Of a stretch of DNA of 64,000 nucleotides, positions 4,721-52,751 are shown one piece after another. The DNA is from an uncultured Verrucomicrobiae bacterium. GTDB lineage: Bacteria; Verrucomicrobiota; Verrucomicrobiia; Limisphaerales; Palsa-1400. The stretch spans positions 1,664,001 to 1,728,000 of the forward strand of contig CAVXRD010000002.1 of assembly GCA_963764165.1 (NCBI GenBank), given 5' to 3'. Below the pieces are notes generated by a model. It searched no databases. It saw nothing but the letters and a program-made list of their open reading frames with translations, and was not told where the DNA came from. The translations under genes were made by a program, and so were the position numbers. Positions within the stretch are counted from its first letter, which is position 1. Every line of letters starts with the position of its first letter.

Positions 4721-6001
4721 CTACCGGACAGACACGTCCAGGCTGACGCCCTCGCGGGTGCTGCGGGCGTAAATATGGCCATTGCTGATGCTCGGCGCAT
4801 TCCAGCATTTGCCGGACAGCACATGGCTGCGGGCCACTTCCTGATATTTTTCAGGCGAGGCTTTTACGAGGACGAGGTCTCCGGCATCGCTCAGAACCAG
4901 AACGCAACCGCTGACCAGCGTGCAGCCTCCCGGACCAAAACCCTCCTGCGACCAAACCACCTGGCCTGACGTCGCGTTGACGCACACCAGCGGCGCTTTT
5001 CCGAATTTGGCCTGGCCGGAAATGCCGTAGATAAAGCCGTCGCTGTAAACCGGCGTGCTCCAGTGATTGGCCAGAATGCTGGCTGGCTGCTTCCAAACCG
5101 GGGCGGCGTCGAACGTGTCCCCAGTTTTCGTGATCTTGCACGCAGCCGTGCCGACACCATAGGCCGCGGAGCAATACACCATGTCGCCGCAGACCAAAGG
5201 GGATATGGCGGTCGAGACCGCGTACTTGAACGGAAAACGCCAGAGCACCGCGCCGGTGGCGGGGGCGACGGACACCAGCCCGCGCTGCGTGAAAAAGATC
5301 ACCTGCCGCGTGCCGAGAATCGTGGCTGCCACGGGGGTGGACTGCGTCATCTTCTCGTCCTGCCCCTTCCACACGACGTGGCCATCCATTTTATTGAAAG
5401 CGAGCAAGGATTCGCCCATGCCGCCGCCCGCAACGAAAACCAGATTGCCGTCGATCAATGGCGAGGCGGCGCTTTCCCAATGAATATTATGGCCGCCAAA
5501 TTCATGGATAATATCCTTGGCCCAAATCTGCTGCCCAGTCGCCCCGTCCATGCACTTCAATACCATGGTGGAGGAATAGGTGTAGACCCGCCCCCCATCG
5601 GCGGTCGGCGTGGAGCGCGGGCCGTCACCACCATTATTCTCGGGTGTGCCTTTTTCGCCGCCGTCGTCATAATGCGCAACCCCGAGCGGCACCACCCAAA
5701 GCTGGCGTCCGGTCTTTTCGTCCCGCGCCACGCACGATTCTTGTTCCGCGCCATCAATGTTCCGCGTCTCGAGCGTATAGGCATGTGTGCCGTCGACGGT
5801 GATGGCGCTGAAGCCGTCGGTCATGGGTTGTTTCCAAACTTCCTTGAGGCCGGTGGCGGGCCAGGCAGTGAGAATTTTTTCGGGCGATGCGCCGTCGTGG
5901 TTCGGCCCGCGAAATTGCGGCCAATCCACTGCTCCGGCAGTTCCGGCCATTGCGGCCACCAAACCAGTGGCGAGAGTCCATTTGATAATTCGTCTTGCCA
6001 T
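4721..6001 (-). CDS. Secreted PQQ-binding-like/BamB-like beta-propeller protein
   Basis: Signal peptide, DWPQFRGP start, GPRSTP, and repeated TG..LW/VW Trp-docking motifs. Confidence 0.85.
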
Positions 6002-25653: not shown

Positions 25654-26166
25654 TCACTTCTCTCTCCCTCTTTCTGATGCCGCAACGCGGCACCGTTCGG
25701 CGACCCATGCCAGATCTTCCAGGAATTCCGCCCTCTTTTTCTCTGGCCAGCCGTACAATACTTCGGATTGCAGACCGAGCGCGATTTCGCGGGCGCGTTC
25801 AAAGACCTCGCGGCCGGCGGGTGTCAGGCGCAGGCGGTAGGCGCGGCGGTCGTGCTCGTGGCGGTCGCGCGTGATCCAGCCCATCGTTTCCATCCGTTCG
25901 ACCAGCGCGCCAATCGTGTTCGGATCGCTGGCGACGAGGCGGTTCAATCCGCTTTGGGTCAAACCCTGCGGCTCGTGCTCGGCTAAATTTCGCAAGGCGG
26001 TGAATTGATCGGGCGTCATCGCGAGGTGGGTGAGCCGCCGGCGGAAGGTTTGGTTCAGGTTGAACCACGCGTGGCGCAGCAAGATCGGCAGGCGCCGCCG
26101 CGAAGGCGCATGAAGGGCTGGAGCGGGCGGTTTGGCGGGAGCGGAAAATTTGGGTCGGCGCGGCAT
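25654..26166 (-). CDS. MarR-family transcriptional regulator
   Basis: TPDQFTAL, TQSGL, LVERME..GWITR...DRRAYRLRLTPAG. Confidence 0.9.
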   Translation of the reverse strand: MPRRPKFSAPAKPPAPALHAPSRRRLPILLRHAWFNLNQTFRRRLTHLAMTPDQFTALRNLAEHEPQGLTQSGLNRLVASDPNTIGALVERMETMGWITRDRHEHDRRAYRLRLTPAGREVFERAREIALGLQSEVLYGWPEKKRAEFLEDLAWVAERCRVAASERGREK

Positions 26167-26173
26167 GTGAGGA

Positions 26174-26239
26174 AATACTACGTGTAAGTATTATTTTTGT
26201 TGCATGTCGGGCGAAGGTGTAGAATACTGCGAGTATTCT
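26174..26239. promoter_or_regulatory. Two AATACT/AGTATT palindromes (putative MarR operators) overlapping a TTGTTG-N17-TAGAAT promoter
   Basis: AATACT-N7-AGTATT 26174-26192; AGAATACT-GCG-AGTATTCT 26221-26239; -35 at 26197-26202 and -10 at 26220-26225. Confidence 0.6.
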
Positions 26240-26387
26240 TGGAAGCCAAAAAACGCAGTGAGTCCGCGCGTTGGTGTAATTTGAACGCAGAAGAGCTGGA
26301 AAGATTTTGTCGTCTTTGACTCTTTGCGGCTTTCCATGAGATCAGGATCGTTGTTGCTGAGGCAGATTGTTTTTTTGTTTAGCCAAT

Positions 26388-28715
26388 ATGAGACTGAAAA
26401 TTCCGGTTGTGTTGGGCCTGTTCGGTTGTTTTCTGGGCCATTTGACTCTCAATGCCGCGCCCACCGGCTGGTTTAGCTGGCGCGGCCCAAACCAAAACGG
26501 CACCTCCGCCGAAACCAATCTCCCCTCCACCATCGACGGCGCTCATCCGCTTTGGACGGCGGATTTCCCGGGGCAATCGACCGCCGTTGCTTGCAACGGG
26601 CGCATTTATATCATGGGCTATCTGGGAACCGGGCCGGATTTGTCCGAGGGCGTGGCCTGCTTCGACGCCAATACCGGCAAGGAACTCTGGCACAAGGTTT
26701 ACCTCGATTTCCTCAGCGACACCGTTTACACGCGCTATTCCACTTCCAGCCCAACGCTCGATCCCGAAACTGGGAATGTTTATATCCAGGACACTCAGGG
26801 CATTTTCGCGGGCTTCACATCGGACGGGAAAACCCTGTGGGAACATTCGCTGATGGAGGAGTATGGCCGGCTGACGTTCCCGAACGGGCGCACGGCTTCG
26901 CCGGTGGTCGACAAGGATTTGGTCATCACGCGCGGCATCACGGCCAATTGGGGCGCGCAAGGTCCGGCTGCGGATCGCTTCTATGCATTTGACAAAATGA
27001 CCGGCCAGGCGGTCTGGTCTTCCACACCCGGCGGGCGGCCCAAGGACAATTCCTATTCCCACCCCGTGCTCGGGTGGCTGGATGGCAAGCGCGTGTTTTA
27101 TTCCGCCACGGGAGACGGCTCGGTGATTTGCGCCAATGCCCGCACCGGCCAGCCGATTTTCCAAATTCCACTCTTCAAAGCAGGAATCAACGCCTCGGTC
27201 CTTTTGCACAAGGACGACGAGATCGTCGCCATTTACGGAACGCCCTACGAACCCGGCCAGATGGTCGGCCTGAAAATTCCGCACGTCACCCCGACAAATT
27301 CCACCGATCCGGTCATAGTGCCGCGCTCGCAAGTGGAGCTGTGGAACAACGAGCTTCGCACCTCCGCCAGCTCGCCGATTCTGGTGGGCGACCGCGTTTA
27401 CGTGACAAGCGAAGTCGGTTATCTGGTCGCGGTGGATGCGCTGACGGGAAGGCTCGTTTGGAAACTGAAGCTGGGAATCGAGCAGCGCAATTCCTGCCCG
27501 CTGTTTGCGGATGGCAAAATTTATGCGCCGATTCTCAACGACCCGGAATTTTCCGCCGCGGTCGGCGAGGAAAACGCCTCCGGCGGCCACGGCGCCCTTT
27601 ACGTGATTTCTCCGGGCGACAACGAGGGGCAGGTTCTTTCGCACACGGTTCTTGATGGCCGCTGTTTTGGAACTCCCACCGCTTACAACGGCCGCATCTA
27701 CATGCAGACAACCAAGAAGCTTTATTGCTTCGGCAGCCCAGCGCCGAGCTCGCCGGATTTCAAAACCGCCGATGCCGCCCCGGACGACAAATGGCCCGAA
27801 CCCGGTCCGGCTAAGTCCCTGCTCATCGAGCCCAACGAACTGCTCTTGCAGCCGGGCGAGAAAGTTTCCTTCCGCGTGCGCGAATTGGATGCGAACGGCT
27901 TGACTGTCAAGGAAGTGAGCGACCCGAAATCCGTCAAATGGGAGTCTTTCATTCCTCCGACCGCCAAGGTCAAGGCCAAGATGAACGCCGAATTCAACGC
28001 CGACGGCGAAATGGTCGCCGCGCCGATCAAAGCCCCGTCTGCCGGCGCATTTGAAGCGCAGCTCGATGGGTTGAAGGGCTTCATTCGCGGCCGCGTCCTG
28101 CCAGGACTTCCGCTCAAGCAAGATTTCGAAGCCATTCAGTTGACAGAAATGACATCGAACAATGTCGAGCCTCCCACGCCATTTGCCTATCCGCCGCTGC
28201 CGTGGATTGGGGCGAGGTTCAAGTTCGACGTCCGCAGCAAGGACGGCAACAAAGCCCTCGTCAAGACGATTGATAATCCGTTCTTCCAGCGCGCCACCGT
28301 CTTCATGGGGACGCCGGATTTGAAGAATTACACCATCGAGGCGGACGTGATGAGCGAAGGCAACAAGCGCAAAATGTCCATCGTCGGCCTGATCAACCAG
28401 CGTTACCGCGTGGTGCTCAAAGGCAACGACCAAGTATTGGAAACGACCTCCAACGAGGAGCTTCTCCACAACGACGTGCCGTTCCATTGGTCGGCCAATG
28501 TCTGGTATCACATGAAATTGCGGGTGGATTTGGCGGCGGACGGCTCAGGCGTAATACGCTGCAAAGTGTGGCCCAAAGCTGAGACGGAGCCGGCCCCTTG
28601 GACGAGCGAAGTGCCGATTGCGCACGCGAACACGAGCGGCTGCCCGGGGCTGTTCGGCTTTTCGCCGCAGAACATGCGCGTCTATATTGACAACATCGCG
28701 GTGACGGCGAACTAA
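26388..28715 (+). CDS. Secreted PQQ-like beta-propeller with C-terminal beta-sandwich (lectin/DUF1080-like) domain
   Basis: Signal peptide, WFSWRGP, repeated TGKELW/TGRLVW; C-terminal NYTIEADV...WYHMKLRV...YIDNIAV. Confidence 0.75.
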   Translation: MRLKIPVVLGLFGCFLGHLTLNAAPTGWFSWRGPNQNGTSAETNLPSTIDGAHPLWTADFPGQSTAVACNGRIYIMGYLGTGPDLSEGVACFDANTGKELWHKVYLDFLSDTVYTRYSTSSPTLDPETGNVYIQDTQGIFAGFTSDGKTLWEHSLMEEYGRLTFPNGRTASPVVDKDLVITRGITANWGAQGPAADRFYAFDKMTGQAVWSSTPGGRPKDNSYSHPVLGWLDGKRVFYSATGDGSVICANARTGQPIFQIPLFKAGINASVLLHKDDEIVAIYGTPYEPGQMVGLKIPHVTPTNSTDPVIVPRSQVELWNNELRTSASSPILVGDRVYVTSEVGYLVAVDALTGRLVWKLKLGIEQRNSCPLFADGKIYAPILNDPEFSAAVGEENASGGHGALYVISPGDNEGQVLSHTVLDGRCFGTPTAYNGRIYMQTTKKLYCFGSPAPSSPDFKTADAAPDDKWPEPGPAKSLLIEPNELLLQPGEKVSFRVRELDANGLTVKEVSDPKSVKWESFIPPTAKVKAKMNAEFNADGEMVAAPIKAPSAGAFEAQLDGLKGFIRGRVLPGLPLKQDFEAIQLTEMTSNNVEPPTPFAYPPLPWIGARFKFDVRSKDGNKALVKTIDNPFFQRATVFMGTPDLKNYTIEADVMSEGNKRKMSIVGLINQRYRVVLKGNDQVLETTSNEELLHNDVPFHWSANVWYHMKLRVDLAADGSGVIRCKVWPKAETEPAPWTSEVPIAHANTSGCPGLFGFSPQNMRVYIDNIAVTAN

Positions 28716-28748
28716 TTTGCGAACATCCGCGCCTGCTCCAATCAATCT

Positions 28749-30434
28749 ATGAAATCGAATAACAAATATTTTTCCAGCGTGCTGGTGGCGGCACTGGCGG
28801 CGGGCGGCATGTCGACGAGCGCTTCGGATTGGCCGCGCTGGGGCGGCCCCGACCCGGGGCGCGACATGATTTCGCCTGAGCTTGGATTGCCTGACCGCAT
28901 CACCACCAACACCAACGGCCACATCGACATGAAGCCAGGCACCGACGATATCGATCTCAAAAGCGCGCCAAATATCAAATGGGCGGCCAAGGTCGGATCG
29001 CAAAGTTACGGGAACGTCGTGGTCGCGGGCGGAAAGGTTTTTATTGGCACAAACAACGAAAACCCGCGCGATCCGCAGCACCAGGGCGACCGCAGCATCC
29101 TGATGTGCTTCGACGAAAAGACGGGCGCGTTTCTCTGGCAGTTGGTGGTGCCGAAGCTCGCCTCCGGCAAGGTGAACGATTGGGAAAATCTCGGACTGCT
29201 TTCTTCGCCGTGCGTGGAAGGCAATCGCGTTTACCTCGTGACCAGCCGGTGCGAAGTCATGTGTTTGACAACGGATGGCATGGCCGGCGGCAACAATGTC
29301 GGCCCGTTCACGGACGAGGCGCATTACGTGGCGGGACCCGGCAATCCGCCCGCGAAAATCGGGCCGCATGACGCCGATATCGTTTGGAAATATGACATGA
29401 TGGATGAGCTGGGAGTGTTTCCGCACAACGCCTCGAATTGCTCTCTGCTGATCGTCGGCGATTTGATTTACGCCTGCACTTCCAATGGCCAGGATTGGAC
29501 GCACGTCAGCATTCCTTCGCCCAATTCCCCGAGTTTCATCGCGATCAACAAAAACACCGGCAAGCTCGCGGGTGAGGACAACGCCGGGATTGGCCCGCGC
29601 ATTTTCCACGGCGAATGGAGTTCGCCCTCGATGGGTGTCGTCAATGGCAAGACGCTGATTTTCTTCGGCGGCGGCGACGGAGTTTGCTACGCCTTCGACG
29701 CCGAGCCAAAAAAAGGCGACGGCTCGCCCATCGTCCCGGTCGTGCCCGGCCCGCCGATCAATCGCACCGAAGACGCGGACACGATGTATTTGAAAAAGTA
29801 CTGGTGGTTCGATTGCAACCCGCCGGAACGCCGCGTCAACGATGCCGTTCATAAATATCCCGCGCCGGACGGCCCGAGCGAAGTAAACGCAACTCCGGTT
29901 TTCTGGCACAACAAAGTTTACATTGCGGTCGGCCAGGACCCTGAACACGGCGAAGGCGTTGGCATGCTGAATTGCATTGATGCAACCAAGACCGGTGACG
30001 TCACGAAGTCGGGCAAGATTTGGAGCTTCGACAAAATTCATCGCAGCCTCTCGACCGTTTCCATCACGCCGGATGGTTTGCTGTTTGTCGGTGATTTCTC
30101 CGGCTTCCTCCATTGCCTCGACGCGAACACGGGCGAGGAATACTGGGTGCAGGATTTGAAGGCGCACATCTGGGGCTCGACGATGGTGGCGGACGGAAAA
30201 GTTTACATCGGCGACGAGGACGGCGACCTGTTCGTTTTCGCGGCCAGCAAGCAAAAGAAATTGCTGAGCACGACCAATCTCGGCGGGCCGATTTATTCGA
30301 CCCCCATTGTGGCCAACGGAGTTTTATACGTCCATTCCAACACGCACCTTTTTGCGTTCTACGACGCCGAGCATCAAAAGATGGCGAGCGATGAAAAACC
30401 AAAACTGAATCTGGACAACAAAAACGAAAAATGA
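28749..30434 (+). CDS. Secreted PQQ-like beta-propeller protein
   Basis: Signal peptide ending ASA, DWPRWGGP, GKVFIGTN, TGAFLW, DGKVYIGDEDG, YSTPIVANGVLY. Confidence 0.8.
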   Translation: MKSNNKYFSSVLVAALAAGGMSTSASDWPRWGGPDPGRDMISPELGLPDRITTNTNGHIDMKPGTDDIDLKSAPNIKWAAKVGSQSYGNVVVAGGKVFIGTNNENPRDPQHQGDRSILMCFDEKTGAFLWQLVVPKLASGKVNDWENLGLLSSPCVEGNRVYLVTSRCEVMCLTTDGMAGGNNVGPFTDEAHYVAGPGNPPAKIGPHDADIVWKYDMMDELGVFPHNASNCSLLIVGDLIYACTSNGQDWTHVSIPSPNSPSFIAINKNTGKLAGEDNAGIGPRIFHGEWSSPSMGVVNGKTLIFFGGGDGVCYAFDAEPKKGDGSPIVPVVPGPPINRTEDADTMYLKKYWWFDCNPPERRVNDAVHKYPAPDGPSEVNATPVFWHNKVYIAVGQDPEHGEGVGMLNCIDATKTGDVTKSGKIWSFDKIHRSLSTVSITPDGLLFVGDFSGFLHCLDANTGEEYWVQDLKAHIWGSTMVADGKVYIGDEDGDLFVFAASKQKKLLSTTNLGGPIYSTPIVANGVLYVHSNTHLFAFYDAEHQKMASDEKPKLNLDNKNEK

Positions 30435-30724
30435 GCGACGCGGCCCGGCCAAATTCGGAATCTGGAAAATCCGCCGGTGCAAGACCGCGCAAACGGATGT
30501 CGCCGCAGATGGCCGTGGCGTTGTTTGTGTTGATTGCGGCCGTCTATGCCGCGCATCAGGATTTTTGGAATTGGAAAAAGCCTGAGCCTATGGTGTTCGG
30601 ATTCCTGCCCATCGGATTGGCTTACCACGCGGGTTATTCAATTGTCTGCTCCGTTCTGATGTTTATTCTGGTGCAAACGGCGTGGCCGCGCCATCTGGAG
30701 GAAACGGAGCCGTCCTCCAAATGA
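30431..30724 (+). CDS. DUF3311-like small two-TM partner of the SSS transporter
   Basis: HQDFWNW...FGFLPIGLAY between two TM helices; ATGA overlaps on both sides. Confidence 0.75.
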   Translation: MSDAARPNSESGKSAGARPRKRMSPQMAVALFVLIAAVYAAHQDFWNWKKPEPMVFGFLPIGLAYHAGYSIVCSVLMFILVQTAWPRHLEETEPSSK

Positions 30725-32475
30725 TTCCCGTTATTGTCATACTGGTCTATCTGGCGGTGATCGCGATCATTGGCGGCGCCGCCTTCAAGAAGAGCAAGGA
30801 AAACACCGAAGACTTCTTCCTCGCCAGCCGTTCGATTGGCTCGTTGGTTTTCTTCCTCTCGCTCTTCGCGACGAACATGACGGCCTTCGCCATTCTCGGG
30901 AGTTCCGGGCAGGCGTATCGGCAGGGGATTGGCATTTACGGGTTGATGGCGTCCTCGTCGTGCTTCGTGATTCCCATGACGATATTTTTCATCGGCACTC
31001 GCTTGTGGGCGCTCGGAAAAAAATTCGGGCATCAGACGCAAGTCTCCTATTTTCGCGACCGTTGGGAATGCAATCACATCGGCACCGTGATTTTTGCGCT
31101 GAGCGCGGCGATGCTCGTGCCTTACATGATCATCAGCATCATGGGCGGCGGCACCGTGCTGGCTGAAATATCCCGCGATTCGGTCACTCATGCGCCGATC
31201 ATTCCCTATAATTGGGGCTGCGCCGTGGTCGCCGTCGTGGTGACGCTGAACGTATTTCTTGGGGGCATGCGCGGGACCGTATGGGTGAATATTTTGCAGA
31301 CGTCGATGTTCCTCCTTTTCGGCGCGGTCGCGGTGGCGTGGATCAGCCATTCGATGCCCGAAAGTTTTAGTGCTTCGATGGCAAAACTCGCCGCTGATCC
31401 GAAAACAAAATTTCTGGTGACGCGCGATAGAATTCCGATGGAGACGTTCTGGAGTTACACGTTGATTCCGCTCTCCTCAATCATGTTTCCGCACATGGCT
31501 ATCATGTGTTTTTCGGCGCGCCGCGTAACCGCGTTCAAGCAGACAGTCGTTGCCTACCCGATTGCGATTCTTGCGATCTGGCTGCCGTGCGTGTTCCTGG
31601 GCGTTTTGGGAATGGCCGCCCTCGGAAAAATCCCGGACCCGGACGGCGTGCTGTTGCAGATGCTGCAAAAATTCGCTCCCGCCTGGCTCGCCGGCCTTCT
31701 CGGCGCGGGCGTCATTTCGGCGGTGATGGGATCGGATGCGCATCAAGTGCTGGCGCTGAGCACGATGTTCACCAAGGATATTTTTACGCATTACGGCGGC
31801 GGCGAAAAATTCGGCGAAAAGCGGGCAGTCCATTTTGCGCGCGGATTCATTATTATTGTCACCGTATTTGCCTATGCGGTCGCGCTGGCGCTGAAGGAGA
31901 AGCAGGGCATTTTTGAAGTTGCGATCCGCTACGCTTTCTCCGGTTTTGCGGCGATGGCCCCGGTGATGGTGGCGGCGTTGTTCTGGAAGCGCAGCACCAA
32001 ATGGGGCGCGCTCGCGGCCACTGTTTTTGTCGCGTTCAGTTTGATCGGCACAGGATTTCTCCAAGGTTCACCTGCGGCTCCTCCTGCAGCGGCCGCTGCT
32101 CCTTCGGGTGGCAAGCCTTTGCCGACGAATGCATTGGCCAAAGCATCAAGCCCGACCAACGCCGCTCCAAAAGTCGCAGGCACGAACTCTCCCGTCGGCA
32201 AACCCGCCGTGGCTGGCGCGCCGACCGCTCCAGTGAAGCCGAAAGAGGACATCATTTGGAAAATTGGCGATGGCAAAGGCGCAATTACCGTCCTCTCCCG
32301 CGCGCCGATTGGTGACGTCCGTTTTCTCGGTGGCTACATGACCGTCGTCCCAATGGTGATCGGCTCCATTCTCTGCGTCATCATTTTCTCGCTCTTGAGC
32401 AAGCCGCCGAGCCAGGCGACCATCGCAAAATATTTCGACGAAAATCCAACGCCAACCGCAACCGCCAAATTGTAA
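30721..32475 (+). CDS. Sodium:solute symporter (SSS) family transporter
   Basis: EDFFLASRSIG, SLFATNMTAF, GGMRG, SAVMGS, FWKRSTKWGA; about 13 TM helices. Confidence 0.9.
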   Translation: MIPVIVILVYLAVIAIIGGAAFKKSKENTEDFFLASRSIGSLVFFLSLFATNMTAFAILGSSGQAYRQGIGIYGLMASSSCFVIPMTIFFIGTRLWALGKKFGHQTQVSYFRDRWECNHIGTVIFALSAAMLVPYMIISIMGGGTVLAEISRDSVTHAPIIPYNWGCAVVAVVVTLNVFLGGMRGTVWVNILQTSMFLLFGAVAVAWISHSMPESFSASMAKLAADPKTKFLVTRDRIPMETFWSYTLIPLSSIMFPHMAIMCFSARRVTAFKQTVVAYPIAILAIWLPCVFLGVLGMAALGKIPDPDGVLLQMLQKFAPAWLAGLLGAGVISAVMGSDAHQVLALSTMFTKDIFTHYGGGEKFGEKRAVHFARGFIIIVTVFAYAVALALKEKQGIFEVAIRYAFSGFAAMAPVMVAALFWKRSTKWGALAATVFVAFSLIGTGFLQGSPAAPPAAAAAPSGGKPLPTNALAKASSPTNAAPKVAGTNSPVGKPAVAGAPTAPVKPKEDIIWKIGDGKGAITVLSRAPIGDVRFLGGYMTVVPMVIGSILCVIIFSLLSKPPSQATIAKYFDENPTPTATAKL

Positions 32476-32480
32476 TTGTA

Positions 32481-33560
32481 ATGTCAGAAATTGATTTATC
32501 CGCCGTGGCCGCCGCCCGGCAAAAGCTGGACGCGCATGTTCGCGAAATTGTGCAATGGCATTTTTCGCCGGAAACCGGTTCGCCATTCTGGCTCGACTGG
32601 GCCAAAAAAGCCGGCTGGAATCCCGCCACGGAAGTGAAGTGCTTCGGCTGCCTCGAAAAATTTCCGCATTTTCAGGACGAATGGCTGCGCGACATGCAGC
32701 CGGAAGTTTGGGTGCCGCAAAAATTCAAGGGGCGCCCCTTCAACATTTTTGAAACCGGCGGCACAACCGGAATGCCAAAGCAGCGAATCGGCTGGGATGA
32801 TTACAAAGTGGATTACGAGGAATTTTCCGGCAAACTTTCCGACGGGCATTTCCCCAAAGGCGGCGCGTGGCTGATGGTCGGCCCGACCGGTCCGCGGCGT
32901 TTGCGCCTCGCCATCGAGCACCTCGCCAATTTTCGCGGCAGCTCGTGCTATTTCATCGATCTCGACCCGCGCTGGGTCAAGCGGGTCATTTCCGCCAAGC
33001 AGCCTGAAGTGGCGCGGGATTACATGGATCACGTCGTTCACCAAGCCGTGACGATTTTGAAGAACCGCAAAATCAGCGCCCTCTTCACGACACCTAAATT
33101 GCTGGAAGCCCTCGGCGAGAAAATCGATTTGTGGGAGGCCGGCATTCGCGGCGTGTTCTGCGGCGGCACGACGATGGCCCCGCAATACGTGCGTTACATC
33201 GTGGAAGAAGTTTTGGAGGGGCGCATTGGTTTCTATCCCACTTACGGCAACACTTTGATGGGCCTTGCCGCCAGTGTCCCGTTGCGCCCTGAGGACCAGT
33301 TCTCGATCACCTATTTCGCGCCGCAACCCCGCGCCGTCCTGCGCGTGGTCAATTCAAACAAAACCACCGAACTCGTCGAGTACGGAAAATGGGGCCGTGT
33401 CGAATTGACGACATTGACGAAGGAATTTTTCATGCCCCGCTTTCTGGAGCGCGACGAAGCCATCCGCCGCGAACCGCGCGGCCCCTATGCCTGGGACGGC
33501 GTCGCCGAAGTCCGCCCCTTCGGAGCAATGGAAAAGAACATCGTCGAAGGCGTCTATTAA
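32481..33560 (+). CDS. EhpF/GriC-like carboxylate-adenylating enzyme (arylcarboxylate reductase component)
   Basis: WHFSPETGSPFW, ETGGTTGMPK, PTGP, IDLDPRWVKR, TTP, GGT, YGNT, ERD and C-terminal EGVY match recalled EhpF motifs. Confidence 0.8.
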   Translation: MSEIDLSAVAAARQKLDAHVREIVQWHFSPETGSPFWLDWAKKAGWNPATEVKCFGCLEKFPHFQDEWLRDMQPEVWVPQKFKGRPFNIFETGGTTGMPKQRIGWDDYKVDYEEFSGKLSDGHFPKGGAWLMVGPTGPRRLRLAIEHLANFRGSSCYFIDLDPRWVKRVISAKQPEVARDYMDHVVHQAVTILKNRKISALFTTPKLLEALGEKIDLWEAGIRGVFCGGTTMAPQYVRYIVEEVLEGRIGFYPTYGNTLMGLAASVPLRPEDQFSITYFAPQPRAVLRVVNSNKTTELVEYGKWGRVELTTLTKEFFMPRFLERDEAIRREPRGPYAWDGVAEVRPFGAMEKNIVEGVY

Positions 33561-33711: not shown

Positions 33712-33918
33712 TTGAACGAGCTAATATTTCTTGTCGAAGATGCGCCAGACGGAGGTTTTACCGCTCGCGCTCTAGGTCAATCGATCTTTACGGAAGCAGA
33801 CTCGCTGGATGAGCTTCGCACCAATGTGCGTGACGCTGTCCAGTGTCATTTTAATGAAGGCAAAGCCCCAAAAGTGATCCGTTTGCATTTTGTCCGCGAG
33901 GAAGTGCTGGCGAATTGA
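33712..33918 (+). CDS. Small HicB-like protein (orphan antitoxin)
   Basis: IFLVEDAPDGGFTARALGQSIFTEADSLDELRTNVRDAVQCHF partial RNase H-like fold; TTG start. Confidence 0.7.
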   Translation: MNELIFLVEDAPDGGFTARALGQSIFTEADSLDELRTNVRDAVQCHFNEGKAPKVIRLHFVREEVLAN

Positions 33919-33964
33919 TCGGTCGGCCTTTTACAAATAAGAGAGTCCTTGATGCCGCAACAGC

Positions 33965-34168
33965 TTATCGCGAGCCGCTGCGTTCGACCTTTACTGCTTT
34001 CAAAGGCGCTTCACCGAGATTGCCAGAACACTCCGACCGACCGCGAATCGCGAGCTGCCGTTCCCGCAGGGCATCAAGCAGCTTCAGCTTTTCCGCCACG
34101 GGCAGCGCCGCAAGCTTTTGCCGCATGGCGCGCTTGCTTTCCAAAATCTTCCACATCTCAAAGCTCAT
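33965..34168 (-). CDS. Small basic helical hypothetical protein
   Basis: 67 aa, SKRAMRQKLAALPVAEKLKLL; ATGA overlap with the upstream nucleotidyltransferase. Confidence 0.55.
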   Translation of the reverse strand: MSFEMWKILESKRAMRQKLAALPVAEKLKLLDALRERQLAIRGRSECSGNLGEAPLKAVKVERSGSR

Positions 34169-34692
34169 CGGGAATCGCTCAGATACTGTCGCTCAAATTT
34201 GCTCCATGCGTCAAGGAGACCGTGCCGGCCCAGGATAGCTTGAAATCGGCACGCGTCAATTGTTCCAGTTTCGATAAACTGGAGGAGCCGAGCTTTGTCT
34301 TTGGCCCGCCCGGTTTGGAGCGCGATGGCGGCTAAATGCTCCGCTGTGAAGACCTGCGCCGGTGTCTCTTCTACGTCTTTGCGGAAGGATTCCCGCAATG
34401 CCTCCTCGACCAACGGATTTCCCGCCGGGAGAAACTGAACGGGCCATCCGCCTATCATCACATACTCGCCCTCCATCGCGCACCCCCTCGCCTTGAGGTA
34501 ATCAAAAATCGGCTGCGGGTTGACGATCAAACTTCCTTGTTCGGGCCTGAATGCGACAAAAATATCCACATCCAGAGTGGCGATGGGTTCCAGATAAAAT
34601 GTCGCTCCAACCGCTCCGCCGATCGCATAACGATCAAAGACTCCGTCGGCTTGCATTTGGTTAATTGTCTGGATGGCTTCTTTGACGCTCAT
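34165..34692 (-). CDS. Pol-beta superfamily nucleotidyltransferase (AbiEii-like motifs)
   Basis: YAIGGAVGA...TLDVDIFV (GG + DxD) and C-terminal GRAKD. Confidence 0.7.
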   Translation of the reverse strand: MSVKEAIQTINQMQADGVFDRYAIGGAVGATFYLEPIATLDVDIFVAFRPEQGSLIVNPQPIFDYLKARGCAMEGEYVMIGGWPVQFLPAGNPLVEEALRESFRKDVEETPAQVFTAEHLAAIALQTGRAKDKARLLQFIETGTIDACRFQAILGRHGLLDAWSKFERQYLSDSR

Positions 34693-34837
34693 TTTCGCCT
34701 TGTGCGAATCTAAGCGAAATTTCTTCACCTGACCACAAACTTTGACCCACTTTTCCTGAGTTCGGGCGGTCCAGATTCAATTTTTCCTGGAAAATTGAAC
34801 ATTGAAGTTTCCGCAAGTCAGAGTACTTAGAGTTACG

Positions 34838-35896
34838 ATGCGTTTTATTGGTCGGATCATCGAAAAGCTCCAGCGGCATCCCAAACGGGTGGTTTTCCCG
34901 GAGGGGACCGAGCCGCGCGTGCTGCAGGCGGCGCGGCAGTTTTATTCGCTGCGCCTGGGCGCGCCCATTTTGCTGGGCGACAGGACGAAAGTGAAACAGG
35001 CGGCGGCCGAATTGAATGTTTCGCTGGAGGGTGTCCGCATCATCAATCCCGCCGAGAGCGAGGATTTGCCTGCTTTCGTCAAGCGCTACGAATTGCTGCG
35101 CCGTTTCAAGGGAATCGAGGAAAAGGAAGCTCACGAGACGATGCTCAACCCGAATTATTACGGCGCGATGATGCTGGCCATGCATCAAGTCGACGGCTTT
35201 ATTTCCGGCGCGAATCAAAGCTCCGGCAGCGTGCTGCGCCCGCTCTTCCAAATCGTCAAGGTCGCCCCGGCGGCGGCGACGGCTTCCAGTTGCATGGTGA
35301 TGGAAGTGGAGGATACGAGATTTGGGCAGGAAGGCGTTTTGTTCATGGGGGATTGCGGCGTCATTCCCGAGCCGACCGTTCAGCAATTGGCGGAAATCGC
35401 GGTGTCGACGGCACAATTGAGCCATCAGCTTCTCGGCATTCGTCCGCGGGTGGCGCTGCTTTCGTATTCGACAAAAGGGAGCGCGACGCATCCGTCCATC
35501 GGCAAGGTTCAAGCGGCCACTGCCTTAGCGCAAAAGATTGCGCACGATACCGGATTTGAGGCGGATTTCGACGGCGAACTGCAAGTGGACGCGGCGCTCG
35601 TCCCGGAAATTGCCGCCCGCAAATTGCCGGACAGCCATGTCGCCGGGCGCGCGAATGTTTTGATTTTTCCCGACCTCAATTCCGGCAATATCGCCAGCAA
35701 GTTGATCCAGCACGTCGCCAAGGCGCACGCTTACGGCCAAATCCTGCTTGGCTTGGATCGCCCGGCGGCGGACGTCTCGCGCGGCGCCAATGCGCATGAT
35801 GTCCTCGGCGTGGCCGCGATTGTCGGCCTCCAATCCATCGCCTACAAAGATTTGTATCCGCCGGATCTGGATCAAATTCACCTCCAATTAAAATAA
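34838..35896 (+). CDS. pta: Phosphate acetyltransferase, catalytic domain only
   Basis: VVFPEG, DCGVIPEP, VALLSYSTKGS, DGELQVDAAL, FPDLNSGNI, DVSRG..D. Confidence 0.88.
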   Translation: MRFIGRIIEKLQRHPKRVVFPEGTEPRVLQAARQFYSLRLGAPILLGDRTKVKQAAAELNVSLEGVRIINPAESEDLPAFVKRYELLRRFKGIEEKEAHETMLNPNYYGAMMLAMHQVDGFISGANQSSGSVLRPLFQIVKVAPAAATASSCMVMEVEDTRFGQEGVLFMGDCGVIPEPTVQQLAEIAVSTAQLSHQLLGIRPRVALLSYSTKGSATHPSIGKVQAATALAQKIAHDTGFEADFDGELQVDAALVPEIAARKLPDSHVAGRANVLIFPDLNSGNIASKLIQHVAKAHAYGQILLGLDRPAADVSRGANAHDVLGVAAIVGLQSIAYKDLYPPDLDQIHLQLK

Positions 35897-35914
35897 GCCC
35901 GGCCCGCAGGCTTA

Positions 35915-37012
35915 ATGAGCACCATGAACACAGTCACGCCGCGCATCTTCATCGCCGCCACCCGGCAGAATGAAGGCAAAACAACCACGTCCCTCGGCTT
36001 GCTCTCCGCCCTGCAGCAATTTTATCCGCGCATCGGCTACATCAAGCCGGTCGGCCAGCGGTTCGTCGAAATCGAGGAGCAGAAAATTGACGAGGACACG
36101 GTGTTGATGGACCAGGTTTACCGGCTGAACTGCCCGCTGCCTGACATGAGCCCGATTGCGGTCGAGCCGGATTTCACGCGGAAATATCTGCAATCCTCCA
36201 ACAACGAAGCGCTCGTCAAGAAGATTATCAAGGCCTTTGACCGCGTGGCGTGGGAAAAGGATTTCGTGCTGTGCGAAGGATCGGGCCACGCGGGTGTTGG
36301 TTCCGTGTTCGATCTTTCCAACGCGCAGGTGGCGAAAATCCTCGATGCGAAAGTCATCATCATCAGCCAGGGCGGCATCGGCAAGCCGATTGACGAAGTG
36401 TATTTGAACCAGGCCGTGTTCGAGCGCGAAGGCGTCGAGGTCATCGGTGTCATCCTCAACAAAGTCACGCCGGACAAAATCGATTACATCAGCGAGTTTG
36501 CCCGGCGCGGACTTCGGCGGAAAGGATTGGAATTGCTCGGCGTGCTGCCGCATCACCACATTTTGTCGCGTCCGACGCTGGCGGCGATCCAGGTCGAATT
36601 GAACGCGCAGCCGCTCAACCGATCCCCGCATGTCAACAACATGGTTGCCAGCGTGGTCGTCGGCGCCATGAGCGCGCCGAACGCGGAAAGCCATTTCAAG
36701 CGCGGATCGCTGATCATCACGCCGGGGGACCGCGAAGACATTATCACGACAGCCCTGACCGAGCCGGTGCGGCAATTGGCGGGCATGGTGCTGACGGACA
36801 AAATCAAGCCAGCCAACGGCGTTCTGCGCATGATTGAAAACGCGCCCTTCCCGGTCCTGCTCGCCGACGAGGACAGCTACGAAGTTGCCTCCAGCGTCCA
36901 CAATCTCACTGTGAAAACGCGCGCGGCGGACACGGAAAAGATCACCCTCATCCGCGACCTCATCGCCGAAAACGTCGATGTCGCCAAAATTCTGCGCTCC
37001 CTCAAATTGTGA
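35915..37012 (+). CDS. Stand-alone BioD-like AAA/DRTGG protein (equivalent to the long-Pta N-terminal region)
   Basis: NEGKTT P-loop, GYIKPVG, CEGSG, GVILNK, VVGAM, ITPGDRED. Confidence 0.85.
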   Translation: MSTMNTVTPRIFIAATRQNEGKTTTSLGLLSALQQFYPRIGYIKPVGQRFVEIEEQKIDEDTVLMDQVYRLNCPLPDMSPIAVEPDFTRKYLQSSNNEALVKKIIKAFDRVAWEKDFVLCEGSGHAGVGSVFDLSNAQVAKILDAKVIIISQGGIGKPIDEVYLNQAVFEREGVEVIGVILNKVTPDKIDYISEFARRGLRRKGLELLGVLPHHHILSRPTLAAIQVELNAQPLNRSPHVNNMVASVVVGAMSAPNAESHFKRGSLIITPGDREDIITTALTEPVRQLAGMVLTDKIKPANGVLRMIENAPFPVLLADEDSYEVASSVHNLTVKTRAADTEKITLIRDLIAENVDVAKILRSLKL

Positions 37013-50178: not shown

Positions 50179-51336
50179 TCACGCCCCGCGCTGTCCAAAC
50201 ACCTCTTCAAACAACCGCACAAAATCCCGCTCTGTAATCGAGCGTGGGTTGAATCCCGCCGTCCATTGCCGGGCTGCTTCGGCGGCGAGCGTGGGAATGG
50301 CGGATTCTTCCACGCCGCAATCCGCCAGAGAACGCGGCATGCCCGCGAGATTCAAGAAACTTTCCACTTTTGCCGCAAGTCCGGAGGATTTGGGTTCGCC
50401 GAGTTCATCATAAAGAGCCGCGAGGGCGGGATCAGCCGCATTAAAACGAATTACCGCCGGCAGCATCAATCCGACAGCCTGTCCGTGGACAATTTTGAAA
50501 TGCGCCGTCAACGGATTCGCCGCGGCGTGCGCCGCGCCGAGCATGCTGCTTTCAATGGCCAGCCCGGCCATGGCCGCGCCGAGAAGCATCCCCGCACGCG
50601 CCTCCAAATCCTTTCCATTCCGCAAGACGGCCGGAAACGATGATTGACAGAGCCGCCACGCTTCGCGCGAATAAGCCAGCGAAAGGGCGTTGCGCTTTTT
50701 GGTGACCGCCGTTTCGAGCGCGTGCGAAATCGCGTCAAGCCCTGTGCAGGCGGCCACGCGGGGCGGCTGGGAAATGGTCAGGGCCGGATCAAGCAGCGCG
50801 ATGCGAGCCGCCGCTTTCGGGTCGCCGCAGGCCATTTTGTTGTGCGTGGCCTCGTCGGCGATCAAGGCGAACGACTGGCATTCGCTTCCCGTTCCGGCGG
50901 TGGTCGGGATGGCGATGAGCGGAAGCATTGGAAGCTTCGCCTTGCCGACGCCCCAGTAATCCTGCATGCGTCCGCCGTTAGTCAATAAGAAATTGCAACC
51001 CTTCGCCGTGTCCATGCTGCTGCCGCCCCCCAATCCGACGATGCCATCAATCGAATTCTCCGTCGCGGCGGCGAGGCAGACGCCGACATCCGCCGTGGTG
51101 GGATTTTCGCGAACTTTGTCAAATAAAACCGTCGCCACCCCCGCCTTTTCCAGTCCGTCGCGCACACGCGCGGCATGTCCGGCGGCGACCACGCCGGGGT
51201 CAGTCACCAGAAGGACACGCTTTAGGCCAAGCTCGCGGGCCAGTTCGCCAGTCCGGTCGACTGAATCGACTCCGAAAATAATCCGGGTGCGCGGATGATG
51301 GTCAAAGCTCGGAACCGTCAGCGGCGAGAGGCTCAT
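50179..51336 (-). CDS. Iron-containing alcohol dehydrogenase
   Basis: GLGGGSSMDTAK, IPTTAGTGSE, GLDAISHALE, AAHA, HG; ATGA overlap with the upstream gene. Confidence 0.9.
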   Translation of the reverse strand: MSLSPLTVPSFDHHPRTRIIFGVDSVDRTGELARELGLKRVLLVTDPGVVAAGHAARVRDGLEKAGVATVLFDKVRENPTTADVGVCLAAATENSIDGIVGLGGGSSMDTAKGCNFLLTNGGRMQDYWGVGKAKLPMLPLIAIPTTAGTGSECQSFALIADEATHNKMACGDPKAAARIALLDPALTISQPPRVAACTGLDAISHALETAVTKKRNALSLAYSREAWRLCQSSFPAVLRNGKDLEARAGMLLGAAMAGLAIESSMLGAAHAAANPLTAHFKIVHGQAVGLMLPAVIRFNAADPALAALYDELGEPKSSGLAAKVESFLNLAGMPRSLADCGVEESAIPTLAAEAARQWTAGFNPRSITERDFVRLFEEVFGQRGA

Positions 51337-52751
51337 GAGGCGATTTCGAGGGCGCGGCGTTTGTAAAGAAACTCGAACATGTTGCCCTCGTGCGGCTGGT
51401 CCCACGAGACGGTCATGGTGGAAATCGGGCCAAGATTGAGCCGCTCGATCAGCGGCGTTTCCACCAATTGCGAAATAAATGACTCGTCGCGCGTGATGGC
51501 CGTGACCGCCAGCGAAGGCCCGATTTTTTCGAGCATCGCGGATTGCGGCACCGTCACGACGCTGGCGTAGGGGCAGAGAAATTCGCGATTGGCCAGCGGA
51601 TGTTCGATTGAATCGCACAGCACAATGGTGGGCCGCAGATAAAATCCGCCCTCGAATTGAACTTTGCGCGGCCCGTTGCGAAATTCAGCCGTGACGTCGC
51701 GCGCGCCGGGCGTTTTCAATCCGTCCTCGATGCTGCTGTCAATAAAATCCGCCATTTTGAGATTGGCGAATCCGGCCAGCCGCGCGTTCGGATCCGCCGC
51801 GGGCAATGGCGCTACGGGGCCCAATTTCCGAGACAGCGCCTCGGATATCTCTTTCGCGTATTTCGGCACGACAACAGCGGAGGCGTTGATGCAACTGCGC
51901 CCGCCGTTGTCCGAAATCGCCGAGACCAACAAATCAATAAATTCCGGCCAGCGCTCGATTTGATCATCGCCGATCAGGATTTTGCTGTAGCCCGGCCCGT
52001 GGATTTGAATGGCCGGATTGTTCGCGTAGGCGGAAGTCGTATTCTTGTCGCCGAAGATCAAAGCCCGTCCGCTGCCGCGCAAAATTTCGGCCGCGCCTTC
52101 GTGATCGGTCGGATAAAAGCCAAAGGCTTCGGCGGGGCAGCCGGCGGCGATGAAGGCTTGAATCAACCGAAACGGCGTCCACGGCTCCTCGCGCCCGGGC
52201 TTGATGACGACGGGAATTTTCAGCGGAATCGCGGGCAGCCACAGGGAATTCACCGCCGGAGAATTGCTAGGCATGACCAGTCCGAGGCAGCGGGCGGTTG
52301 GATAAAAACTGATGCGATCCGCAAAACCTTTGTCGAGCACTGTCAAATCAAGCCCACGCGTCAGGCCATTCAAAATGGCGGGCATGTTGGAGAGCGCGGC
52401 GTTGATTTTCGCCATGTTCCTCCGCACCATCACATGCGGCAATCCGCTGCTGGCCGAGAGCGATTCCAGATATTGAGCGGGCGACTGCGTGCCGCCTTCG
52501 CCAAGCGGCAATGTGCCTTCCAGAAAAAGCTTTCCCGCCTCGGCGCAAATATCGAGCAGCCGCGCGACGGGAATTTTTTTGAGGGACGCGCGCGCATCGC
52601 TCATGCGCGACAAATCCTTGCGCACGATTCCGCCATTGACCTGGCTGAGAGTGGCGAGAACAGCGCCGGTGCGGCAGTCGACGATGTTGCTGCGATCAAG
52701 GCTCTCGTAAGCCCGCCCGCGCCGCAAAGCTGGAATGTGAGAACTCGTCAT
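51333..52751 (-). CDS. ALDH-superfamily acyl reductase (EhpG/GriD-like)
   Basis: PSNSP...LW...KPGREEP, HGPGYSKILI (no ELGG Glu), ISDNGGRSCINAS catalytic Cys, PHEG; ATG 52751. Confidence 0.75.
   Translation of the reverse strand: MTSSHIPALRRGRAYESLDRSNIVDCRTGAVLATLSQVNGGIVRKDLSRMSDARASLKKIPVARLLDICAEAGKLFLEGTLPLGEGGTQSPAQYLESLSASSGLPHVMVRRNMAKINAALSNMPAILNGLTRGLDLTVLDKGFADRISFYPTARCLGLVMPSNSPAVNSLWLPAIPLKIPVVIKPGREEPWTPFRLIQAFIAAGCPAEAFGFYPTDHEGAAEILRGSGRALIFGDKNTTSAYANNPAIQIHGPGYSKILIGDDQIERWPEFIDLLVSAISDNGGRSCINASAVVVPKYAKEISEALSRKLGPVAPLPAADPNARLAGFANLKMADFIDSSIEDGLKTPGARDVTAEFRNGPRKVQFEGGFYLRPTIVLCDSIEHPLANREFLCPYASVVTVPQSAMLEKIGPSLAVTAITRDESFISQLVETPLIERLNLGPISTMTVSWDQPHEGNMFEFLYKRRALEIAS

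Follow-up and report, generated by a model that had tools for sequence, protein, structure and literature searches.

A MarR-linked EhpF/EhpG-type reductase pair in Verrucomicrobiota suggests a reduce-glycosylate-export pathway associated with secreted PQQ-like propellers

What is an adenylating enzyme of the EhpF/GriC type doing in an operon with two secreted beta-propellers and a membrane carrier? The question is raised by a locus in a 64,000-nt stretch of DNA (the window; contig CAVXRD010000002.1, positions 1,664,001 to 1,728,000) from an uncultured Verrucomicrobiae bacterium, in which five co-directional genes with two ATGA overlaps and gaps of 33 and 5 nt lie divergent to marR, a layout reported in the initial annotation and borne out by the coordinates (Table 1). 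The 33 nt separate the two propeller genes, the overlaps tie propeller 2 to the DUF3311 gene and the latter to the gene of a sodium:solute symporter (SSS), and the 5 nt precede the EhpF-like gene. The initial annotation had taken the EhpF-like gene to be an orphan within a system for the capture, import and activation of an external aromatic carboxylate. The reading preferred here, to which a probability of about one half is given, is that the operon, linked to marR, would supply and activate the precursor for a conserved and hitherto undescribed pathway of reduction, glycosylation and export, whose product would be bound or used by periplasmic propellers resembling those of pyrroloquinoline quinone (PQQ) enzymes, the chemistry being read from family membership.

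The 359-aa EhpF-like protein was found to align from residue 3 to its final tyrosine with the 366-aa EhpF chain (PDB 3l2k and 3hgu) at E 5e-45, as against E 0.27 for the nearest other structure, the second-ranked 4-chlorobenzoate coenzyme A (CoA) ligase, so that its assignment to the EhpF/GriC type is upheld. An identity as an ordinary CoA ligase or as LuxE was excluded by the family-model and PDB comparisons. The protein carries a P-loop-like GGTTG-PK motif, and every motif first quoted for it is present in its translation. Its Pfam AMP-binding match was weak and under the cut-off, and no Pfam match to AMP-binding_C was obtained; EhpF itself presumably also dispenses with the C-terminal domain of ANL enzymes. 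Plasmid proteins annotated as AMP-binding, arylcarboxylate reductase or phenazine protein are 32-37% identical to it. The terminal G-x-Y, forming the very last residues, is invariant in all 31 aligned EhpF-family sequences down to 33% identity, and by analogy with LuxE, where a C-terminal cysteine is assumed to act in acyl transfer, the free C-terminal tyrosine of the EhpF family may act in the same manner.

Among 40 relatives the gene is single copy with 68-90% identity in most, and was found in 32 (a tally that includes one partial or contig-end-cut copy and one in frameshifted pieces), one further relative retaining only its 33-residue end. Its distribution is patchy at phylum level, with 2 of the 150 genomes of an even phylum sample, and a scan of species genomes returned at least 589 loci of the clade, the named ones among the best 80 being Verrucomicrobiota; the list includes a culturable carrier, Verrucomicrobium sp. 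BvORR106. A second clade at about 55% identity comprises at least 8000 protein clusters, of which the named ones are Planctomycetota. Fusion proteins (P0069, P0127) join an EhpF-like domain to an aminotransferase of class III in Streptomyces and, judged by eye, to a zinc alcohol dehydrogenase, which accords with aldehyde formation. Two loci (L215 and L219) have two EhpF-like paralogs per cluster, flanking a family 4 glycosyltransferase (GT4) gene on both sides, and two haloarchaeal plasmids (NC_014299.1 and NZ_CP119993.1) have adjacent EhpF-like and EhpG-like genes.

The EhpF-like gene proved to be no orphan, because an EhpG/GriD-like reductase gene and an iron-containing alcohol dehydrogenase (Fe-ADH) gene sit 18 kb away in the same window, and directly 3' of the EhpF-like gene in many relatives. 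The EhpG-like gene lies within 10 kb of the EhpF-like gene at 28 of the 80 loci from genomes and at 52 of the 80 from metagenomes, and Fe-ADH, which is ATGA-coupled to the reductase gene in the window, was present in 25 of the 80 genome loci. The EhpG-like protein matches the product of the gene just 3' of the ehpF match on Pantoea agglomerans plasmid NZ_CP046724.1 (25.6%, E 4e-27). Cys286 and His250 are both invariant in the EhpG-like alignment, the latter at the position where ordinary aldehyde dehydrogenases have the general-base glutamate, and the two residues would fit, as expected, an acylating enzyme run as a reductase. In addition, the modelled complex of the EhpF-like and EhpG-like proteins scored 0.72, the best of three controls 0.00, on a scale whose mark is attained by 116 of 157 solved pairs and 2 of 215 mismatched pairs; contact agreement between the runs was at least 95% and the predicted local distance difference test (pLDDT) of the partners at least 86, so the modelling supports binding between the two. 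A phzG-ehpF-ehpG gene order is given in a table of PMC11278526. Two further papers describe the adenylation of 3-amino-4-hydroxybenzoate and its reduction to the aldehyde by GriC/GriD (PMC10179220) and the onward conversion of phenazine dicarboxylate by EhpF-O (PMC3175449). The reductase pair here thus represents a known type of enzyme in a clade that is new.

The operon appears to share its control with a second one. A 24-nt inverted repeat, ATAATAC-N6-GTATTAT, is present in 30 of 31 marR-propeller spacers, as opposed to none of 310 shuffles, with marR divergent to propeller 1 in 30 loci, and from its position is likely to be the operator read by MarR. The initial annotation had placed the MarR sites within 26174-26239; the conserved operator is at 26171-26194, and the palindrome at 26221-26239 was not recovered as conserved. 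When a matrix trained without this genome was scanned over its 7 Mb, only two sites exceeded 17 bits, namely that beside marR (33 bits) and one at C4:304979 (37 bits), the best unrelated match reaching 16 bits. The latter site lies just 5' of an operon encoding a short propeller, a HemN-like radical SAM enzyme, a chorismate-lyase-fold protein and a flavoprotein, and the operator was found before such second operons in all 21 testable cases, this genome's included (those with enough upstream DNA among 30 loci fetched).

Linkage of the EhpF-like gene to both propellers and to marR, claimed from this single locus, is conserved among relatives: of the 80 EhpF-like loci in genomes, 46 have propeller 2 and 42 have propeller 1, which is beyond chance. 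The fullest arrangement was observed in G041 (3.1 Mb, 100% complete, of another family), where the whole set of some 20 genes is contiguous and co-directional. The row begins with propeller 3, propellers 1 and 2, DUF3311, SSS, EhpF-like, EhpG-like, Fe-ADH and the short propeller, continues with the HemN-like, lyase-fold, flavoprotein, GT4, hot-dog thioesterase, small membrane protein and PaaK-like ligase genes, and ends with an ABC ATPase, an FtsX-type permease and an exported beta-sandwich protein. Seven further loci (L060, L076, L082, L239, L240, L245 and L254) have the set partly contiguous. In the present genome it is split into six loci, two in the window and four elsewhere (C4:300570-305046, C2:297210-298998, C3:403026-404843 and C2:151292-155183); the exporter ATPase was not pinned down, its best match (C1:1247441-1248073, 53%) lying away from the permease. 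Clustering of the neighbours of 80 loci likewise had the longest loci adding a propeller, the HemN-like enzyme, a 180-aa gene, the flavoprotein and GT4. A short EhpF-EhpG-GT4-ABC-FtsX cluster with propellers recurs in metagenome loci (e.g. L191, L193, L198, L205 and L206), of which 80, many of them short, yielded GT4 in 25, the ABC ATPase in 16 and the C-terminal part of the permease in 11, and where a metagenome locus belongs to the second clade, GT4, ATPase and permease genes often come straight after the EhpF-EhpG pair. No paper describing the cluster was found in a literature search made mostly through listings and covering few subscription papers.

With regard to the remaining enzymes, the modelled 180-aa protein (an orthologue from L082) has the chorismate-lyase fold, matching AF1396 with a template modelling score of 0.72 (E 4e-8; E 1e-4 by profile) and chorismate lyase 1fw9 at E 9e-4; D-M-T, R73, PLG, R155 and E172 are invariant or nearly so in its family and look, in our estimation, like lyase motifs. 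In the PDB the flavoprotein matches halogenases best (8zop, E 9e-65; 3e1t, E 3e-52), and it has the sequence marks of such enzymes, with GxGxxG, WxWxIP and a lysine at the position presumed catalytic in flavin-dependent halogenases. The Trp_halogenase model was above its cut-off for the L082 orthologue, the QhpG, LodB, GoxB and geranylgeranyl reductase models matched under theirs, and the protein groups with CndH/CmlS/PltA-type enzymes. The permease is a double FtsX-type protein of about 1080 aa, with ATPase and exported partner, and is under the cut-off of the sole NCBIfam model matched. The GT4 (L136:3759-5063; G000:C2:297682-298998) has an N-terminal C-x-x-C-x-x-D, invariant in 15 sequences at 34-47% identity and, we believe, unusual for the family, which is a possible metal site by sequence. 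A second HemN-like subfamily (44-48% identity; L154:7690-10364, L156:12347-13666 and L157:9966-11300) stands beside haem-pathway-like genes or genes of large oxidoreductase-like proteins, and in one case two copies lie in tandem.

Co-occurrence was scored at E 1e-30 in the 40 relatives and at E 1e-40 in the 150 genomes of the phylum sample, with only some candidates scored per genome. The EhpF-like and HemN-like genes, unlinked in this genome, were observed to agree in 38 of 40 relatives, including seven joint absences; the two exceptions, G021 (78% complete) and G027 (640 contigs), do contain matches to propeller 1 and the reductase. An eight-propeller profile, applied to at most 43 candidates per genome, had 6 to at least 37 matches in every relative with the pathway, and 7-8 in three and none in four of those without it. 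In the phylum sample 15 genomes bear propellers, two of them with the EhpF-like gene and 13 of other classes. The permease was present in 14 of these 15 versus 0 of the 135 others, and in 35 of 36 versus 0 of 4 relatives (49 of 51 genomes with propellers and 0 of 139 without, overall), and GT4 in 14 of 15 versus 0 of 135 and in 33 of 36 versus 0 of 4. The system thus looks biosynthetic and exporting, with import optional, because the exporter permease tracks the propellers and the symporter, as discussed below, is not core.

The pathway that we infer from these families, substrate, order of steps and product included, would begin with a 4-hydroxybenzoate-type acid made by the chorismate-lyase-fold protein, or with an aromatic acid salvaged by the SSS or major facilitator superfamily (MFS) carrier. 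The PaaK-like ligase would load the acid onto CoA and the hot-dog thioesterase would release it, the flavin halogenase-like and HemN-like radical SAM enzymes meanwhile tailoring it. The EhpF-like protein would then adenylate the carboxylate and hand the acyl group to the cysteine of the EhpG-like protein, which would reduce it to the aldehyde, and Fe-ADH would yield the alcohol. Finally, a sugar would be attached to the alcohol by the single-copy GT4, and the FtsX/LolCDE-type ABC system would extract the product from the inner membrane into the periplasm, for binding or use by the propellers there.

Propeller 1 consists of a signal-peptide-like start, a PQQ-like beta-propeller and a C-terminal beta-sandwich, with many invariant polar residues across 48 sequences; its C-terminal domain resembles, in features only, the sandwiches of the 3-keto-disaccharide-hydrolase type, and matches, at 28% (E 1e-9), the small exported protein whose gene adjoins that of the FtsX permease. 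Propeller 2 is of the BamB/PQQ-dehydrogenase type with invariant His, Asp, Glu and Asn in inserted loops, and its model (pLDDT 88), whose nearest folds are BamB, YxaL, tetrathionate hydrolase and PQQ dehydrogenases at 12-17% identity, is possibly that of a ligand-binding or catalytic protein. Neither belongs to the known families by score: both reached 38-40 bits against a cut-off of 480 for TIGR03075 (PQQ dehydrogenase) and 42 and 57 bits against 285 for TIGR03300 (BamB), the N-termini read by eye as cleaved signal peptides, lacking the lipoprotein cysteine of BamB, and TIGR04528 (“empty quinoproteins”) matched weakly, under its cut-off. PQQ was rejected as their cofactor since pqqE does not track the propellers: only 6 of the 51 genomes that bear propellers have it, as does 1 of the 9 that bear none. 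The present genome does have PQQ synthesis genes (G000:C1:1057010-1059007), with pqqE above cut-off and a TenA/PqqC-family gene adjacent. The propeller profile has 18 matches in this genome, counting the cluster's own as well as the dispersed paralogs. In the dispersed propellers, four cysteines occupy the same repeat position in different blades, with conservation of 76-94% across 37 sequences.

Several observations weigh against the reduce-glycosylate-export reading or parts of it. The 13 propeller-bearing genomes of other classes are without the EhpF-like and HemN-like genes while nearly all keep GT4 and the permease, and therefore the GT4 acceptor need not be aromatic; in G013 and G034, which have GT4, permease and propellers, the markers searched revealed neither of the enzyme sets, G030 and G185 bear propellers but gave no match to GT4 or to the permease, and G041, with the full set, has but one partial propeller outside the cluster. 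The co-occurrence counts themselves are uncorrected for kinship between the genomes, and the propeller tallies include members of the cluster. The short cluster is without the lyase, radical SAM enzyme, flavoenzyme and Fe-ADH. The best fold match of the lyase-like protein is the uncharacterised AF1396, in a fold common to non-catalytic GntR effector domains; the protein has no Pfam match, and none of 32 members of its family matched a chorismate-lyase model of Pfam. The score of the modelled EhpF-EhpG complex may reflect likeness to an already solved ligase-reductase pair, and the four loci of this genome with the reductase, GT4, ligase and permease have no operator according to the matrix scan. 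As for the propellers, propeller 2 is closest in fold to BamB with no close solved relative, and the 37 dispersed-type sequences have mostly structural residues and few polar ones in common, so that a common polar binding site was not evident in their alignment.

The strict version, in which the EhpF pathway serves all propellers, was rejected on account of the 13 other-class genomes together with G013, G030 and G034, and its failure led to consideration of the GT4-permease chassis and a second gene set. A second propeller cluster, found in 2 of the 13 genomes, encodes squalene-cyclase-like, prenyltransferase-fold, DUF116-polyprenyl synthase and radical SAM proteins (loci L148 and L149, G129:C3:42000-66100, and L151, G177:C82), with NHL, 4Fe-4S and NuoEF/GltD-like genes too, and in G129 runs on into 4Fe-4S and NuoEF-like genes and then the same GT4, short propeller, ATPase and permease. 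The radical SAM gene of this second set is present in 11 of the 13 genomes, in G030 and in four genomes with the first set, and absent from the present genome; G162 and G183 are without EhpF-like, HemN-like or second radical SAM markers, G162 having NuoEF-like genes beside GT4. It can be proposed, tentatively, that the many “empty” PQQ-like propellers found in Verrucomicrobiota and Planctomycetota receive a new glycosylated aromatic-derived cofactor or prosthetic group through a dedicated type VII ABC system, the second set joining the same GT4-exporter chassis in other lineages.

The service of the GT4 and permease to a second set with polyprenyl synthase, squalene-cyclase-like and prenyltransferase-fold proteins also lends itself to another product, an envelope glycolipid or lipid-like anchor in which a long-chain or prenyl acid is reduced, glycosylated and extracted by the ABC system, the propellers being carriers or BamB-like scaffolds. 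Such a logic presumably resembles heterocyst glycolipid export, and the BamB-like fold of propeller 2 would suit it, as would the extraction of hydrophobic compounds from the inner membrane that is reported for type VII ABC systems (PMC12646458). However, the set holds a lyase-fold protein, an aryl-type CoA ligase and an aromatic-acid-type MFS, the characterised relatives use aromatic acids (PMC10179220), both cluster propellers have many invariant polar residues, and the recurring neighbours, at which no family scan was aimed, showed no obvious gene for a ketosynthase or carrier protein; the glycolipid is accordingly considered doubtful. An excreted, possibly halogenated secondary metabolite, with the tie to the dispersed propellers arising from shared ancestry or lifestyle, would account for the halogenase matches and WxWxIP of the flavoprotein, for G041 with its cluster and almost no dispersed propellers, and for the antibiotic and pigment pathways to which EhpF/EhpG and GriC/GriD belong. 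A single-copy gene at 68-90% identity across an order, in a set retained though split into six loci, and the all-or-none loss of pathway and propellers in G009, G023, G035 and G040 fit a housekeeping role better, and inspection of the recurring neighbours brought no gene for an outer-membrane channel to notice; excretion is considered unlikely.

Stand-alone capture, import and activation of an external aromatic acid, followed by degradation or detoxification, as first proposed, draws on MarR control and on the slot before the EhpF-like gene, which takes three distinct carriers (an SSS of 67-79% identity, an SSS of 34-39% identity and an MFS nearest to aromatic acid/H+ symporters, though under the cut-off; the SSS is under that of every NCBIfam model). 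Yet of the 46 loci with propeller 2, 11 have an SSS in this slot, 11 have an MFS and 24 have no carrier, so the symporter was rejected as a fixed or core component, being replaced or absent in most relatives. Import of an aromatic acid probably serves salvage within a biosynthetic pathway and is not the purpose of the system, given the co-regulated operon of lyase-fold, radical SAM and halogenase-like proteins and the linkage to GT4 and exporter; ring-cleavage genes were not noticed among the recurring neighbours, and the stand-alone system is thus judged quite improbable. Least probable by far is the tailoring by the EhpF-like gene of a phenazine made elsewhere in the genome, which homology to EhpF and EhpG would suggest and to which the EhpF identity of only 32% is opposed. 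The absence of phz genes, also claimed initially, stood in part: PhzA/B, the only members of the phz core searched, gave no match in the 97%-complete genome, weak evidence since the control genomes were silent too, and the other phz genes are covered only by the neighbour lists of 160 loci, in which none was noticed.

Table 1. Features of the EhpF-like locus and associated elements, in window coordinates.
Feature	Position	Strand	Basis or remark
marR, MarR-family repressor	25654..26166	-	PF01047 and PF12802 above cut-off
Conserved operator, 24 nt, inverted repeat	26171..26194	.	Conserved in marR-propeller spacers
Second perfect palindrome, 8-nt arms	26221..26239	.	Not the site recovered by conservation analysis
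Propeller 1	26388..28715 (ATG at 26388)	+	PQQ_2, E 5e-24
Propeller 2	28749..30434	+	PQQ_2 above cut-off
DUF3311 small membrane protein, companion of the symporter	30431..30724	+	PF11755, 32.8 bits against cut-off of 30
Sodium:solute symporter (SSS)	30721..32475	+	PF00474 (SSF) above cut-off
EhpF/GriC-type adenylating half of two-protein carboxylic acid reductase, 359 aa	32481..33560	+	EhpF, E 5e-45
Iron-containing alcohol dehydrogenase (Fe-ADH)	50179..51336	-	PF00465, E 4e-50
EhpG/GriD-like aldehyde-dehydrogenase-fold reductase	51333..52751 (start taken: ATG 52751)	-	Match to gene after ehpF, Pantoea plasmid
Dispersed PQQ-like propeller paralog	4721..6001	-	Propeller profile

Immediately 3' of the operon, small genes at 33712-34728 encode a 68-aa HicB-like, a 67-aa and a 187-aa nucleotidyltransferase-like protein (likenesses by eye), two of which were tested and had no Pfam match. 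Comparable small gene pairs lie directly 3' of the EhpF-like gene in 13 of 80 metagenome loci, because of which the site may attract toxin-antitoxin-like insertions. The following region (34802-37012), with a phosphate acetyltransferase-like gene, a separate DRTGG/AAA-type gene and then hisC-like and argA-like genes, again by eye, has no linkage to the cluster in relatives.

Secreted PQQ-like propellers, of which genomes of this order contain up to at least 37 copies, have so far been named by fold only, after BamB and PQQ. They can now be linked to a single-copy pathway that comes and goes with them, to a regulon of two operons whose operator is defined, and to a short list of assayable enzymes, and a very large clade is added to the EhpF/EhpG reductase, hitherto met in a handful of clusters for antibiotics and pigments. 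Once identified, the product should prove to be either a cofactor or an envelope molecule, new in both cases, of bacteria abundant in soil and water; were the cofactor reading true, the propellers would constitute a large unrecognised enzyme family.

Among known systems, the closest is EhpF/EhpG of the D-alanylgriseoluteic acid operon of Pantoea agglomerans, with which both halves are homologous over their full length (32%, E 3e-40, for the EhpF half) and share the ehpF-ehpG order, in relatives, and a short adenylating protein ending in EGVY; unlike the plasmid-borne ehp genes, the pair here is single-copy and near-core in an order, no phenazine genes were found with it, and its partners are GT4, a type VII ABC system, radical SAM and lyase-fold proteins and secreted propellers. 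GriC/GriD of the grixazone pathway (Streptomyces griseus) is comparable by description, an AMP-binding protein adenylating the acid before aldehyde formation (PMC10179220), and “arylcarboxylate reductase” proteins of Streptomyces plasmids match the EhpF-like protein at 33-34%; here, in contrast, no aminohydroxybenzoate synthase genes were noticed among the neighbours, and alcohol dehydrogenase, GT4 and exporter are added. In another PVC bacterium (Planctomycetes, Verrucomicrobia and Chlamydiae), Planctomycetales strain 10988, a chorismate-lyase-like gene likewise adjoins a flavin halogenase gene in baaA-baaB for 3,5-dibromo-p-anisic acid (bioRxiv 10.1101/723874), whereas BaaB is about 44% similar to Bmp5, the product retains its carboxylate, and the portion of the preprint available names no reductase, radical SAM enzyme, GT4 or exporter; the baa locus was rejected as the same cluster. 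Cofactor pathways with expanded client families have one pathway serving many paralogous proteins. In PQQ, mycofactocin and TIGR04528 systems, as here, a conserved pathway with radical SAM enzyme and flavoenzyme co-occurs with many secreted paralogs, the differences being that pqqE does not track the propellers, that no precursor peptide was noticed, although no search was aimed at one, and that a carboxylate reductase and an FtsX-type exporter are in the set. The type VII ABC extractors YbbAP-TesA and LolCDE also combine a double FtsX-type permease with an ATPase and an exported partner, though here the partners are propellers and a beta-sandwich protein and the permease is under the NCBIfam cut-off. 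Finally, heterocyst glycolipid export (HglT, DevBCA) presumably proceeds from an alcohol to GT4 and then to ABC export, the same succession as is proposed for the gene set described here.

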